From contig NZ_CP189974.1 in the NCBI RefSeq assembly GCF_051549785.1, positions 34,093 through 98,092 on the forward strand: a DNA stretch of 64,000 bases. The letters run 5' to 3'. The DNA is from Candidatus Caldatribacterium sp. SIUC1. GTDB taxonomy: Bacteria > Atribacterota > Atribacteria > Atribacterales > Caldatribacteriaceae. A program made the translations under genes and the position numbers. Shown here piece after piece: positions 34,874-42,786 of the stretch (the first letter of the stretch is position 1; the number at the start of each line of letters is the position of its first letter). Under the pieces are notes generated by a model. The model had not been told where the DNA came from. It saw only the letters and a list, made by a program, of their open reading frames with translations, and made no database searches.

Positions 34874-36196
34874 CTATTCCGTGAACCGGATGGTCTCCTG
34901 ACGAAAGGCCGCATACTCTAAGACTGATTGCTCCTGAACCTCCCTGCAGGAAGCATGAATCTCGTCAAAGTGGTCCAGAAGCATCGCCACGACATCGGCA
35001 TCCAGACCTCCCAAATTCGCCATATCTCCGAGGATTTCCCGAATACGCTGGGGCCTCAGGGCTGGTCGGTAAGGGCGGTCTTCGGACAACGCCACGAAGA
35101 CATCAGCAACGGCCATGACCCTTGACTCAAAGAGGAGTTCTTCCCTTGTTCTTCCAAAAGGATACCCTTGACCATTGCACCGTTCGTGGTGCTCCGAAGC
35201 CCACAAAGCAACGTCCTTCAGGTTTTGAATCCAGGAAAGAGCCGCAAAAGTGTAGTAGGCGTGGGACTTCATAACGCGTATTTCCTTTTCGGTCAGCGGC
35301 CCAGGTTTTTCGAGAATCTCTACCGGTACGGCTATTTTCCCCAGGTCATGGAGGAGCCCTGCCGCAAAAATAAGCTCATGCTCTCCTCTTGGGAGTCCGG
35401 TGAGTTCTCCAAGCCTGCGAGCTGTATACGCCACCCCAGCAGAATGGGTAGCCGTGAAGGCGCTCCGGAAATCAACGAGATGGGCAATAACACGGCAGAA
35501 TCGGAGGAAATCCTCCACATTTAGACACAGTTTCCCCGGAGGAACGAGGCCATGCACGATGTGGCGAAGGCGGGGCGAAGCAAGGTCAAACCACACGTAA
35601 TCCTTGGAGAGGAGTTTTCGAAATGCTTCGAAAACCTCTGGATGGAAGAGACGGGGAACAAAAGACCGGAAGAAAGGCTCTCTCTCCCGGATCTCCCCCA
35701 AGGGATCTTCCTGAAAAGAACACACGATGCTGACCCGGTCAGCGAAATGGATGACGTGGCTTTCAAGGGGAGCGGTTCTGCCACGGCCCTCTTCCCAAGG
35801 AAGATGGTGGCAACGGATAACCTCTGCAAGCGATGCAAAAGGTCCAAAGTCCTTGAGCAACACGTAGCCCACAAAAGCGTGGTGATGAGGATTACGAAAC
35901 TCAAAGTGAAGAGCGTCAAGACGCTCCAGTAGAGAGAACGCTCCGATATCGTGCAGCAGGCCTCCAATGAGGAGATCCCTGAGGGACTGCTCCGGGAATC
36001 CCAGAACCTCTCCGAGGCGAAAGGCAAGGTAAGCAACCTTCAGGTGGTGCTCAAAAAGCCGTCGATTCACAAGGTCTACCACCTCAGCAAGGCAGAGCAC
36101 GAACCCAAGAAGGGGAATACCGTAACAAGAGTCCTCTTCGTTCTCCTGTGTAGGACAAATGACGTTCCAATCCTCCATGGCGACGACACTCCCCAA
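34874..36196 (-). CDS. tandem HD-domain protein, HD-GYP-type (putative c-di-GMP phosphodiesterase)
   Basis: 440 aa. Two HD motifs (..GGLLHDIGAFSL.. and ..AGLLHDLGKIAVP..) with a downstream ..HHE.. GYP-like region. Confidence 0.7.
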   Translation of the reverse strand: MGSVVAMEDWNVICPTQENEEDSCYGIPLLGFVLCLAEVVDLVNRRLFEHHLKVAYLAFRLGEVLGFPEQSLRDLLIGGLLHDIGAFSLLERLDALHFEFRNPHHHAFVGYVLLKDFGPFASLAEVIRCHHLPWEEGRGRTAPLESHVIHFADRVSIVCSFQEDPLGEIREREPFFRSFVPRLFHPEVFEAFRKLLSKDYVWFDLASPRLRHIVHGLVPPGKLCLNVEDFLRFCRVIAHLVDFRSAFTATHSAGVAYTARRLGELTGLPRGEHELIFAAGLLHDLGKIAVPVEILEKPGPLTEKEIRVMKSHAYYTFAALSWIQNLKDVALWASEHHERCNGQGYPFGRTREELLFESRVMAVADVFVALSEDRPYRPALRPQRIREILGDMANLGGLDADVVAMLLDHFDEIHASCREVQEQSVLEYAAFRQETIRFTE

Positions 36197-37212
36197 ACTT
36201 CAGGGAAAGTATACCACAGTCCTCGTTCGTGTACATTTACCGTAAAGGTTCCAACCCAAAAGAACAAACCTCACCGTCCAGAGTATGGGGGAAATCCCAT
36301 GGGTGAAACACCACCAAAACGCTCTGGAGGTGAGGTCCCATGGATATCGGGGCTCCAGGAGATTCTGGCATGCTCTCTCCACTTCCTGGAAAAAAAGAGT
36401 GGGTTTCCAGGAGTTTGCAGAGAAGCTCTCAAAGACCGAAAGCAGTGTGGGCAGATTGAGGGTGGTCCTCGAAAGCCAAAGACGAGGCCATCCACCGGGA
36501 GAGGGATAGAAACGCCTTCCAGGTGGTCCGAAGGAAAGACCAGCGGACCGTCCTCGCCCCCTTTGGGGATGCCACCTCAAGGAAGGACCTCCTATGGGCA
36601 GAGCGACAGAGAGTGTACCTGCACCTCCTCGATGACCAGATCATCTCCGTCCTACCTTGATGCCCCTGGTGCAGGGAGTCCGGAGGCCTGTCCTGAGCGT
36701 TATGCCAGAGGGCAGAGAGAGGGTTCCTGGGAGAACGCGGAAGCCTTCTGCTCTCAAGCCTGCCCGTACCTCCCTCAGAGCTGAGGAGAATCCCAGCACA
36801 CCAGGCGCTCCCAGGCTGCAATCGGCGCCGAAGTCCACGGGAACCTCTCAGCTTGACTCTCCCACAACCCCATGGGCTCTTTGAGCCTTGAAGTTCAACG
36901 GGCGCTGAGAGAGGAAGGGAGGTTTTCCGGGAAGTCCATAACGACATCCCGGCGATGCGGAAAGCGGTGAGTGCTTTAGCACGACCTCAAGGCCCTGGCG
37001 CAGGGTACGTCCTGGGTTCCTGTGGTATGAGGTGACCGTAATCCTCTGGATAGGTAGGGTTGAAAAGGAGAAACCCATGGTGAGAGAACCAGGAGTGGAG
37101 AGAACTCGAGAAAATCCCCCTACGATAGGTTGACACCCATCCAATTCTCCCGCCTGTCACCGGCTTTTTGAGTTTGTGCTACAATGGAAGCAAAAAGGAG
37201 AAAAAATGAATC
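36197..37212. other. about 1 kb GC-rich non-coding region (long 5' leader of HD-GYP gene and/or unidentified structured RNA)
   Basis: No credible ORF in any frame. All frames are short or low-complexity and Arg/Pro-rich. Flanked by divergent genes (HD-GYP on minus, acyl-CoA ligase on plus). Contains an extended -10-like TGTGCTACAAT at about 37176-37186 for the plus-strand gene. Confidence 0.3.
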
Positions 37213-38703
37213 ATGCCGGAAACCATTCCCGAACGTCTGGAAAAAATGAGCAGGGACTACCGGGGGAAAGTCGCCATTTCCTTTCGGGGGACGCGGATAC
37301 TGTACCGGGACCTCCCCGGAATCATCGCCCAGGAAGTAGCGGCTATGCAACAGGCCGGAATACGGCCCGGGACAAGGGTAGTCACGGCCATCGGGAACAG
37401 CTGGTATGCCCTCCGATTCTACCTTGCCGCGCTCACTCTCGGCGTCATTCCCATTCCTCTTTCCCCCCGTACCCCGGAGGACATGCAAGTGAACATCCTC
37501 CGTGCCGCCTCGGCGCAGTTCCTCCTCCGTGAAGCCCCCCTCAAAGACCAGGACGTCCCCTGCGCTATCCTGAGGGAGAACGGGGAAATTTCCTACCCCT
37601 CGACCCTCCTCCCCTCTTCCATACCCCTTCCAGAGCTCGAAAGCCCTGTAGCGGCCCTCTTCTGCACTTCGGGAACTACAGGAATGCCGAAACTCGTCAT
37701 GCTCACCCACCGGAACATCCTCTCCGACATCGACAGTTGCTTCGACCTCGTCGATATCTCCCCCGAAGACCGGATGCTCGGGGTTTTGCCCATGTTCCAC
37801 GTCTTTGGGTTCTCCATCGCCTACCTCCTCCCGCTCATGAAGGGCATGACGCTCACCATTGTCCCCTCCCTGTATCCCCTTGAAGAGTTTGTCACCGCCT
37901 TGCGGGAGGACCAGTCCACCGTTTTCCTCGGTGTTCCAGCAATCTTCTCCATTCTCACCGGTGCCCGGAGAAAGACCTCCTTTGACCTCCATCCCCTGCG
38001 ACTTCTCATCTGCGGGGGCGATGCGCTGCCCTCAAGGGTGCGGGAGGCCTTTGAGGAGGCCTTTGGACTCTGCATCATTGAAGGATACGGCATCACCGAA
38101 GCCTCTCCGGTGGTGGCCGTGAATCCCTCTCCTGAGGCGCGCGTTCCCGGTTCTGCAGGACCAGTCATCAGTGCTATACGCCTGCGAATCGTCAACGACG
38201 CAGGAGAAGACCTGGGCACAAACGAGGTTGGAGAAATCCTCCTTGCCGGAGACCCCGTTTCTCCCGGGTACTTCGCCAACCCCAAAGAGAACGCTCAAGC
38301 CTTCCGGGAGGGGTGGTTCTGCACAGGGGACCTGGGGAGAATAGATGAGCAGGGAATCCTCTACATCGAGGGACGGAAAAAGGAAGTGATCATTGTCTCC
38401 GGTTTCAACGTGTATCCTCAGGAAGTTGAGGAAGTCCTCCTTGGCTTTCCCGGGGTGGCGCAGGCTGCAGTGGTAGGCGTCAAGAGAGAACTCCGGGGAG
38501 AGATGGTGAAAGCCTACATTGTGCCCCAAGAAGGAGCTTCTCTCACGCCCCGAGAGATTGTGGATTTTTGCCGGAAACACCTTCCCCCTCACAAGGTGCC
38601 ACGCCTTGTGGAAATCGTTCCTGGACTCCCCCAGACAGCCACCGGAAAGGTGATGAAATACCTCCTCACCCAGGCTGCTTCGGAGAAGGAGTACGAGGTA
38701 TGA
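37213..38703 (+). CDS. AMP-dependent synthetase/ligase (long-chain-fatty-acid--CoA ligase-like)
   Basis: 496 aa. AMP-binding motif LFCTSGTTGMPK. C-terminal ..TATGKVMKYLL. RBS AAAGGAG. Confidence 0.88.
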   Translation: MPETIPERLEKMSRDYRGKVAISFRGTRILYRDLPGIIAQEVAAMQQAGIRPGTRVVTAIGNSWYALRFYLAALTLGVIPIPLSPRTPEDMQVNILRAASAQFLLREAPLKDQDVPCAILRENGEISYPSTLLPSSIPLPELESPVAALFCTSGTTGMPKLVMLTHRNILSDIDSCFDLVDISPEDRMLGVLPMFHVFGFSIAYLLPLMKGMTLTIVPSLYPLEEFVTALREDQSTVFLGVPAIFSILTGARRKTSFDLHPLRLLICGGDALPSRVREAFEEAFGLCIIEGYGITEASPVVAVNPSPEARVPGSAGPVISAIRLRIVNDAGEDLGTNEVGEILLAGDPVSPGYFANPKENAQAFREGWFCTGDLGRIDEQGILYIEGRKKEVIIVSGFNVYPQEVEEVLLGFPGVAQAAVVGVKRELRGEMVKAYIVPQEGASLTPREIVDFCRKHLPPHKVPRLVEIVPGLPQTATGKVMKYLLTQAASEKEYEV

Positions 38704-41733: not shown

Positions 41734-42786
41734 TCCTCAAAAGTGAACCTCTTTTCCTGGAAAATCCGAAGACAGGCATCAAACGCAGCCTCGTCGTAGA
41801 ACACGCCCCGCCCAGGAGCAATCTCCCGCAGGGTCTCCTGCAGCTCCAGTGCAGAGCGGTAAGGGCGGTAGTATGTCATGGCTTCCACCACATCGGCCAC
41901 GGCAAGAGTACGGGCTTCAACGAGGATTCCCCCGAAGGCCATGAGGGTATCCGGAGCCGTTCATCCGCTCGTGGTGCTCAAGAATGGCCTTCGCTTAGGG
42001 AGCCAGAAGCTCAACCGAGGAAACGATGTCGTAACCCTTTTTAGGATGCTCCTCCACAATAGCCCGCTCAAGAGGCGCAAGCTTCGCCGGTTTGTTCGGA
42101 ATTTCCCCGGGAATGGCAATCTTGCCAATGTCATGAAGGAGACCAGCGATGGAAACTTCACGGATTTTTTCCTCCGAAAACCCCATCTCCCGGGCAAGAA
42201 CCCTTGCAAGCCGTCCGATGGTCTCCTCAGCGCTTGCAAAACCCAGGATTCGCACCATTGCCGGGTTGGCATCGAGAATCGTCCCTTCCCGAGAGGTGTG
42301 GTAAAGACCCAGGGGAACATTGTCGAAAAGACGCTGGTACTGAACGTGAAGCTCCAATGAGAGCCGTTGTACAGCCAAGAGATTCTCCACCCTGGCCTTC
42401 AGCTCCGTCTGGTCAATGGGAGTGGTGATGCCCTCATCCACCACAACCCACAGAAAGTGCATCGCCAGACCAAGGTCTCCCCGGGAGGTGACGAGCATAG
42501 AGGGGAGAAAGAGCGGAGCCTCCTGCTCTCTGCGTTTTTGCATCACCGCCCTCAAGGACCGAAGCACTGGCCTATCCACGATGCCCAGGGAGAAATCCTC
42601 CTCAAGCAGAGCCCTCTCAAGAGAACCTGTGGGAGAAAAGGGAAGATGATTCCACGAGCAAGGGTGAGAGGAGGAAGCTGCTGTTCCTGGAGTCTTTAGG
42701 GAGTAATGCCTGACCAAGCATCCGTCGAACTTTAGACCCAGGGTCAGCTCATGGAACGATGGGGAACTGAAAGATGAAATATCCAC
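41730..42786 (-). pseudogene. disrupted response-regulator/PAS/HD-GYP gene (in-frame TAA plus frameshift in a G-run)
   Basis: ORF 41995..42786 encodes a REC C-terminal half, a PAS fragment and the HD motif (AGLLHDIGKIAIP). After a TAA at 41995-41997 the same frame continues AKAILEHHERMNGSGYPHGLRG (canonical HHExxDGSGYP). The reading then shifts frame at CTTCGGGGGAATC (about 41925-41937) into ..ILVEARTLAVADVVEAMTYYRPYR (ORF 41730..41942). Confidence 0.55.

Follow-up and report, generated by a model that had tools for sequence, protein, structure and literature searches.

The 1,034-bp non-coding interval at positions 36179-37212 of a 64,000-nucleotide stretch of Candidatus Caldatribacterium sp. 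SIUC1 (hereafter, the window), between a gene for an HD-domain protein of the HD-GYP type on the minus strand and a gene for an acyl-CoA ligase on the plus strand, is in our view, with a probability of about 0.93, the fossil of an insertion sequence (IS) of the ISLre2 family lying in a divergent promoter region of this member of the Atribacterota (OP9). In the mechanism that we propose, an element of about 1.65 kb, encoding a DDE transposase of the prokaryotic Mutator-like group p-MULT 3, would have transposed into a divergent promoter region of about 110 bp, its right terminal inverted repeat (IRR) coming to lie some 14-15 nt upstream of the ligase -35 region, and would have made a target duplication of 8-9 bp. 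Frameshifts, stop codons and an internal loss of about 600-750 bp, which probably took the catalytic core with it, would then have left 917 bp of non-coding DNA with a GC content like that of the host.

The orthologous loci of four Caldatribacterium genomes were used for comparison: C. saccharofermentans OP9-77CS (L001), the metagenome-assembled genome (MAG) RSWS11 (L002) and two more Caldatribacterium MAGs (L003 and L004). Their ligase proteins are 96% (L001), 95% (L002) and 76-77% (L004 and L003) identical to that of the window, and in all four an HD-gene orthologue (63-83% identity; 81-83% in L001 and L002) divergently adjoins the ligase gene. The start codons of the HD and ligase genes are 111 bp apart in L001, 110 bp in L002, about 82 bp in L003 and about 76 bp in L004, compared with 1,034 bp in the window. 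When positions 36000-37300 were aligned to the relatives' loci by blastn, 36000-36184 and 37143-37300 matched, and between them nothing did. In the junction alignments a single L002 sequence, TATACCATAATTCCTCCCGCCTGTCACC, accounts for both the left flank (…TATACCACAGTCCTC) and the right flank (CAATTCTCCCGCCTGTCACC…); the target that appears duplicated in the window is present once, as TAATTCCTC, at the empty site of L002. Subtracting the element and an 8-bp duplication from the interval leaves 109 bp (1,034 - 917 - 8). The window therefore holds a 917-bp insertion, at 36225-37141, that L001-L004 lack in their orthologous intergenic regions, and these comparisons demonstrate an insertion polymorphism.

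The nature of the inserted DNA is given by its homology to a dispersed repeat. Among ten pieces of the gap compared with Pfam in all frames, the stop-to-stop piece 36460-36657 (+) matched PF06782 (UPF0236, the ISLre2 transposase family) with E=1.6e-4; other weak matches of gap pieces, to FYRN, Zn_ribbon_HMPTM, Axin and SgrR_N, were dismissed as noise. In a collection of 5.8 billion proteins the same piece found eight short JGI/ENA proteins (78-115 aa, 58-78% identity), seven of which carry PF06782. The contigs of these eight proteins and those recovered by a metagenome scan that used their alignment as seed amount to 51 loci from hot-spring metagenomes (L081-L131), to which the window segment is 74-84% identical at the DNA level. 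The homology sets in sharply at window positions 36220-36225 and, where the contigs are long enough, ends at 37134-37141. At 39 left junctions, belonging to 27 distinct flank clusters, the same IS sequence, GTTAGTGTAAATTTATCGTAGGGGTTCC, abuts unrelated DNA, and full-length copies measure 1,552-1,676 bp (about 1.65 kb). The consensus of the left terminal inverted repeat (IRL), GTTAGTGTAAATTTATCGTAGGGG, agrees with the reverse complement of the IRR consensus, GATAGCGTCAACTTATTGTAGGGA, at about 19 of 25 positions, counted by hand. In the window copy the two repeats are more degenerate, with about 15 of 24 positions matching by eye, and the IRR has one extra base as well as substitutions relative to the family.

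We assembled a consensus transposase of 478 aa as the majority of eight full-length copies, stitched by hand across four frame changes. It scored 254.3 bits against the NCBIfam model NF033529 ('ISLre2 family transposase'; cut-off 200), with the profile fully covered from position 1 to 382, and E=4.4e-59 against PF06782. The transposases of ISKra4 and of the Mycoplasma integrative conjugative element (Mbov_0401) belong to the same Mutator-like superfamily, but the scores of the consensus against their models fell far below the cut-offs (NF033572, 78 bits against 205, and NF046004, 95 bits against 162, respectively), and ISLre2 is the only family whose cut-off the consensus protein passes.

Mapped onto this consensus by tblastn, the window copy retains two parts of the transposase. 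At the N-terminal end, residues 5-51 lie at 36339-36479 (49% identity) and residues 49-105 at 36472-36642 (60% identity) in a different frame; the C-terminal part is degraded by in-frame stops and gaps, and in a blastn comparison positions 1424-1575 of the consensus DNA align to 36907-37059 at 81% identity. The codon-position GC periodicity that is strong in both flanking genes is lost across the gap except at about 36450-36700 (+), and this periodic stretch is the transposase remnant. Residues 106-301 are missing, and a deletion of about 600 bp maps between 36642 and 36718. When the window copy is aligned with the eight full-length ones, columns 631-1226, 1327-1360 and 1389-1472 are empty in it; the internal loss comes to about 600-750 bp. 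The deleted part contains the consensus motifs FIEADEDH and YGDGAP, which by analogy with Mutator-like DDE transposases would carry the first two catalytic aspartates, and the catalytic core would thus have been deleted. No other copy shares the deletion: the region is about 640 bp long in the others and about 78 bp in the window, and because the deletion is unique to this copy the element most likely decayed in situ. Complete ISLre2-family elements (ISfinder) are about 1.5-2 kb long with an intact DDE transposase gene. The window copy, 917 bp long, without residues 106-301 and interrupted by frameshifts and stops, is not an autonomous IS and represents a remnant of a family member rather than a functional one. 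We infer that it is immobile and, except for a -35 hexamer that its IRL may supply to the HD gene (see below), without function.

Between the IRL and the transposase remnant the element forms a leader hairpin with a minimum free energy of -38.8 kcal/mol (z = -4.57; 0 of 200 shuffles were equally stable). Thirteen of its pairs are conserved in 18 copies, among which a covariation test found 0 covarying pairs. From the position of the Shine-Dalgarno sequence in its 3' arm, the hairpin may once have masked the ribosome-binding site of the transposase gene; in the window copy it is vestigial, because the gene downstream is dead. Leader stem-loops in IS10, IS50 and IS200 occlude the ribosome-binding site. 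The leader described here is like them in holding the Shine-Dalgarno sequence within the 3' arm of a hairpin just before the transposase ATG, but there is no sequence relationship to them and no covariation. The features of the locus are collected in Table 1.

Table 1. Features of the insertion and of its surroundings, in window coordinates.
Feature	Position	Strand	Basis and remarks
ISLre2-family IS remnant, 917 bp, internally deleted, frameshifted	36225..37141	+ (transposase sense)	Absent in L001-L004; DNA homology to the repeat family
IRL, GTTCGTGTACATTTACCGTAAAGGTTCC	36225..36252	+	Family consensus GTTAGTGTAAATTTATCGTAGGGGTTCC; 5/28 mismatches; common to 39 left junctions
IRR, ATCCCCCTACGATAGGTTGACACCCATC	37114..37141	+	Family consensus ATCCCTACAATAAGTTGACGCTATC; right ends aligned across about 12 loci
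Degenerate target-site duplication, left copy, CAGTCCTC	36217..36224		6/8 match to right copy
Degenerate target-site duplication, right copy, CAATTCTC	37142..37149		6/8 match to left copy
IS leader hairpin	36268..36336	+	3' arm holds Shine-Dalgarno sequence GGAGGTGAGG (36317-36326), just before remnant ATG 36330
Transposase N-terminal remnant, consensus residues 5-105, two frames	36339..36642	+	tblastn of stitched consensus
Degraded transposase C-terminal remnant, residues ~302-478, in-frame stops and gaps	36686..37027	+	tblastn
Putative hybrid promoter of the HD gene	36208..36235	-	-35 TGTACA (36235-36230, in IRL), 16-nt spacer, extended -10 TGgTATACT (hexamer 36213-36208, original flank)
Ligase promoter and ribosome-binding site	37155..37203	+	-35 at ~37155-37162, extended -10 TGcTACAAT at 37177-37185, ribosome-binding site GGAG at 37197-37200
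HD-domain (HD-GYP-type) gene	34874..36178	-	Pfam HD_5 1.5e-34, HD 6e-32; outside the element
Acyl-CoA ligase (AMP-binding) gene	37213..38703	+	Pfam AMP-binding 2.5e-67, AMP-binding_C 1.3e-22; outside the element

The position of the copy relative to the ligase promoter is that expected of this group of elements. The p-MULT 3 elements, comprising TnGBS and the ISLre2 ISs, insert in a fixed orientation, with sigma-A promoters strongly over-represented 16 bp from the right inverted repeat, and generate direct repeats of 8-9 bp (PMC3942029); repeats of 9 bp are reported for ISGka4, a member of the ISLre2 family (PMC8024623). Independently of this published target preference, TTGACA stood out 16-17 nt past the right end in several otherwise unrelated flanks. 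Judged by a distance of 15-17 bp from the IRR to the sigma-A -35 downstream (PMC3942029), -35/-10 pairs with 10-12 of 12 consensus positions start 15-17 nt from the IRR in L098, L101, L104, L110 and L118, and weaker pairs are found in L105 and L116; overall, 6-7 of 12 independent right flanks have a -35 at 15-17 nt. In the window the conserved TGcTACAAT puts the start of the ligase -35 at 14-15 nt from the IRR, and the best-scoring -35/-10 pair there starts 14 nt past the end of the IRR. Oriented insertion with the IRR upstream of a sigma-70-type -35 is seen in these copies and, with the -35 so placed, in the window copy. Target duplications are clearer in other copies, with GTCTGGAGT and GTCCGGAGT in L116 (8/9) and GAGTTAAA in L086 and L088 (8/8).

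In four unrelated flanks the motif (G)GA(C/T)CTATACA-N5-TTGACA stands directly against the IS end, on the right in L104 and L118 and on the left in L112 and L120, which may point to an element conserved upstream of promoters or to an extra target preference in these genomes. A search of the 64-kb window for CCTATACA-N5-TTGACA, with up to two mismatches, gave 0 matches.

Several observations weigh against the assignment of the gap to a decayed ISLre2-family element. On its own the window fragment reaches 21 bits on PF06782, where the gathering score is 24.3, and has no NCBIfam match; because it is sub-threshold, the family assignment draws on the DNA homology of the segment to the repeat family and on the consensus of that family. 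An intact transposase open reading frame (ORF) was found in none of about 20 metagenome copies examined, and the consensus protein could be obtained only by manual stitching across frameshifts. The duplication flanking the window copy is degenerate (6/8), and the assembled copies in L091, L101, L110, L112 and L118 show no duplication, possibly as a result of chimeric assembly across repeats. Finally, the ligase -35 is weak, and the figure of 14-15 nt depends on its placement from the -10.

The metagenome copies examined are all frameshifted, usually several times, and some of the frameshifts are common to copies at different sites. Although no intact transposase gene is present among these copies, the element occurs at dispersed sites with well-conserved ends. 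It is just conceivable, as a remote reading, that the persistence of this ISLre2-type family does not depend on a conventional transposase ORF but on, for example, recoding.

A search for further copies, covering the 64-kb window and the surroundings of ligase homologues at 80 genome loci, found none save a doubtful trace of about 90 bp at approximately 42645-42763. On the minus strand, 72-90 nt of this region are about 70% identical in DNA to the consensus at positions of about 1265-1411, and there is also a 15-aa tblastn match (LKFDGCLVRHYSLKT against LKFNGCSVRHDFLRT), with E-values that are significant only against that 700-nt region. This may be a minute second remnant of the IS family. 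The trace sits at the 5' end of, and inside, the ORF 41995..42786 (-), the C-terminal part of which is HD-domain-like, and the 5' end of this ORF may be chimeric or mis-called.

The insertion would also have altered the promoter arrangement of the two flanking genes. A scan of 35800-37600 returned a sole sigma-70-like site, the putative hybrid promoter of the HD gene. In L002 the minus strand upstream of the HD gene reads GTGACA-17 nt-TGgTATATT, with this -35 overlapping the ligase -35 region, such that the two promoters stand back-to-back, and the insertion point of the IS falls inside the spacer of the HD-gene promoter. The -10 block, TATACC, is invariant in L001 and L002; the -35 in these relatives is GTGACA, which in the window now lies beyond the IS. 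From these alignments the -35 of the HD gene now seems to come from the left end of the IS, where the window IRL has TGTACA and the family consensus has TTTACA.

Such an arrangement raises the possibility, plausible but in our view less likely than not, that the IS remnant now serves as regulatory DNA, uncoupling the back-to-back promoters and giving the HD gene a new -35; this would add to the IS-fossil explanation rather than replace it. The overlap of the two -35 regions in L002, the location of the insertion point inside the spacer, and the occurrence of TGTACA, in place of the consensus TTTACA, at 16 nt from the retained TGgTATACT all speak for co-option. However, with an extended -10 the promoter may need no -35 at all, the proposal is purely sequence-based, and there is no sign of selection to keep the remnant. 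Moreover, outward-facing -35-like hexamers are common at IS ends, where they are often linked to the promoter of the circular junction. A stronger form of the proposal, in which the fossil is non-neutral and the exchange of the HD-gene -35 for the IRL hexamer would, in this lineage alone, have rewired the expression of a putative cyclic di-GMP (c-di-GMP) phosphodiesterase with respect to the adjacent gene, appears to us more doubtful still.

Other elements of both promoters were left in place. The HD gene has its -10 and ribosome-binding site no more than about 35 nt from its start codon, both conserved in the relatives, and the block containing the ligase promoter and ribosome-binding site hardly varies among the window, L001, L002 and L054. 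Both flanking genes therefore appear, from these sequences, to have short leaders of about 20-25 nt and to have kept their own -10 elements. Because the -10 and ribosome-binding elements sit near both start codons, the 917 bp would be the leader of neither gene. The ligase starts at ATG 37213. For the HD gene the start is most likely ATG 36178, rather than the TTG at 36196 given in the list of ORFs, because the tblastn alignment with the L001 and L002 orthologues begins at residue 1 (MEDWNV...); a Shine-Dalgarno-like GGGGAG also favours this start. In L054, a 473-bp single-cell contig of Candidatus Caldatribacterium californiense, positions 1-76, upstream of the ligase promoter block, diverge from the HD-gene sequence of L001, L002 and the window, and the contig may represent a different neighbourhood or be a chimeric short contig.

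It is improbable that the copy is a still-mobile, non-autonomous deletion derivative, similar to a miniature inverted-repeat transposable element, mobilized in trans by an intact ISLre2 transposase encoded at another genomic site. The retention of both terminal repeats around a deleted interior and the multi-copy nature of the family are consistent with such a derivative, but its deletion recurs in no other copy, a second copy is absent from the 64-kb window, the terminal repeats have accumulated changes (5 of 28 positions in the IRL, an extra base and substitutions in the IRR), and the approximately 20 copies examined include no intact transposase.

The original prediction, made from the sequence alone, had described about 1 kb without a credible ORF that was not AT-rich and that separated an HD-GYP gene (-) from an acyl-CoA ligase gene (+). 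This description holds: the gap is slightly longer than stated, at 1,034 bp, its GC content is 0.49-0.61 in 200-nt windows, near the mean of 0.577 for the whole window and thus not AT-rich, and the Pfam matches to HD_5/HD and AMP-binding identify the two neighbours. The ORFs that can be drawn mechanically inside the gap (277, 172, 126 and 98 aa) are R/S/P/G-rich and off-frame, with no convincing Pfam match. Of the three origins that had been suggested, a decayed gene proved to be the right one, in the form of a decayed IS consisting of a transposase pseudogene with terminal repeats. The other two, a large structured non-coding RNA and a long leader of riboswitch type that controls the HD-GYP gene, are now very unlikely. 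In their favour, the segment folds stably on either strand, but the values of -393 and -405 kcal/mol for the whole segment (1,016 nt) are uninformative, as the length precludes a shuffle control; the one local hairpin of significant stability (z = -4.57) is the IS leader described above, which lies on the strand opposite to the HD gene and shows no covariation.

Searches for known RNAs point the same way. Rfam at gathering thresholds gave zero matches in the whole window, and a scan of both strands, which had been proposed as a check, found no family at threshold. When the limit was relaxed to E<=10 on both strands of 35800-37600, the sole match was to preQ1-II (20.4 bits; gathering score 47), a false positive at 37175-37208 that lies on the ligase -10, the ribosome-binding site with its A-run and the start codon, with almost all of the model skipped. 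No Rfam model came near its gathering score for c-di-GMP-I/II, RNase P, tmRNA, the signal recognition particle (SRP) RNA, T-box, OLE, GOLLD, ROOL, HEARO or group II intron RNAs, ARAGORN found neither tRNA nor tmRNA in the window, and a terminator scan found none. A conserved cis-regulatory leader should also be found upstream of the HD-gene orthologues, and 36225-37141 is missing there in L001-L004, the four relatives in which the HD gene itself is intact. Lack of conservation in related genomes, which had been named beforehand as part of the evidence against an RNA, is thus what is seen at the orthologous locus, and the conserved -10 and ribosome-binding site close to the HD-gene start speak against a long leader.

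A repeat search within the gap returned short, chance-level repeats only, the true terminal repeats being too degenerate to be reported. One inverted repeat from this search, I1 (36358/37094; 26 nt, 73%), was considered as an IS terminus and rejected, the termini lying elsewhere. An 18-nt inverted repeat with 94% complementarity connects the IS remnant at 36998-37015 (GCGCAGGGTACGTCCTGG) with the ligase coding sequence at 37548-37565 (CCAGGACGTCCCCTGCGC); the ligase arm is also found in L001 and L002, and the pairing is probably due to chance (blast E ~0.2).

An assembly artefact, in which the repeat was wrongly joined into the intergenic region, can be dismissed almost entirely: metagenome contigs do often break or turn chimeric at this repeat, with many loci ending inside it and several without duplications, but here both junctions are precise, with a recognisable duplicated target and exact restoration of a 110-bp ancestral spacer, and the deletion and substitutions are unique to the window copy, unlike those of a collapsed repeat.

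The gap is therefore best described as ordinary genomic debris, a new decayed member of the known ISLre2 family. Its family resembles ISLre2 of Limosilactobacillus reuteri and ISGka4 of Geobacillus kaustophilus in having one transposase gene in about 1.65 kb, in its imperfect terminal repeats of about 25 bp, in oriented insertion by -35 boxes and perhaps in the 8-9-bp duplication, which only some copies show clearly; it differs in its host, an atribacterotal one, and the window copy differs further in being 917 bp long, frameshifted and without the central part of the transposase. The hosts of the ISLre2 family in a 2014 survey were Firmicutes, Fusobacterium and Synergistetes (PMC3942029). TnGBS, the streptococcal integrative conjugative elements, share the p-MULT 3 transposase clade and the targeting upstream of sigma-A promoters (PMC3942029), but they are tens of kilobases long and carry conjugation genes, whereas the window element is a simple IS with no cargo.

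In the first place the result is a negative one, in that a 1-kb gap of normal GC content is transposon debris and not worth chasing as an RNA candidate. It also places on record, for the uncultivated phylum Atribacterota, an element of the ISLre2 family whose ends and consensus are defined, and it provides, in the insertion itself, a clean polymorphism marker between closely related Caldatribacterium lineages. The habit of ISLre2 elements to insert 15-17 nt upstream of sigma-70-type promoters holds in Caldatribacterium, and the right ends of such copies therefore mark likely promoters there.

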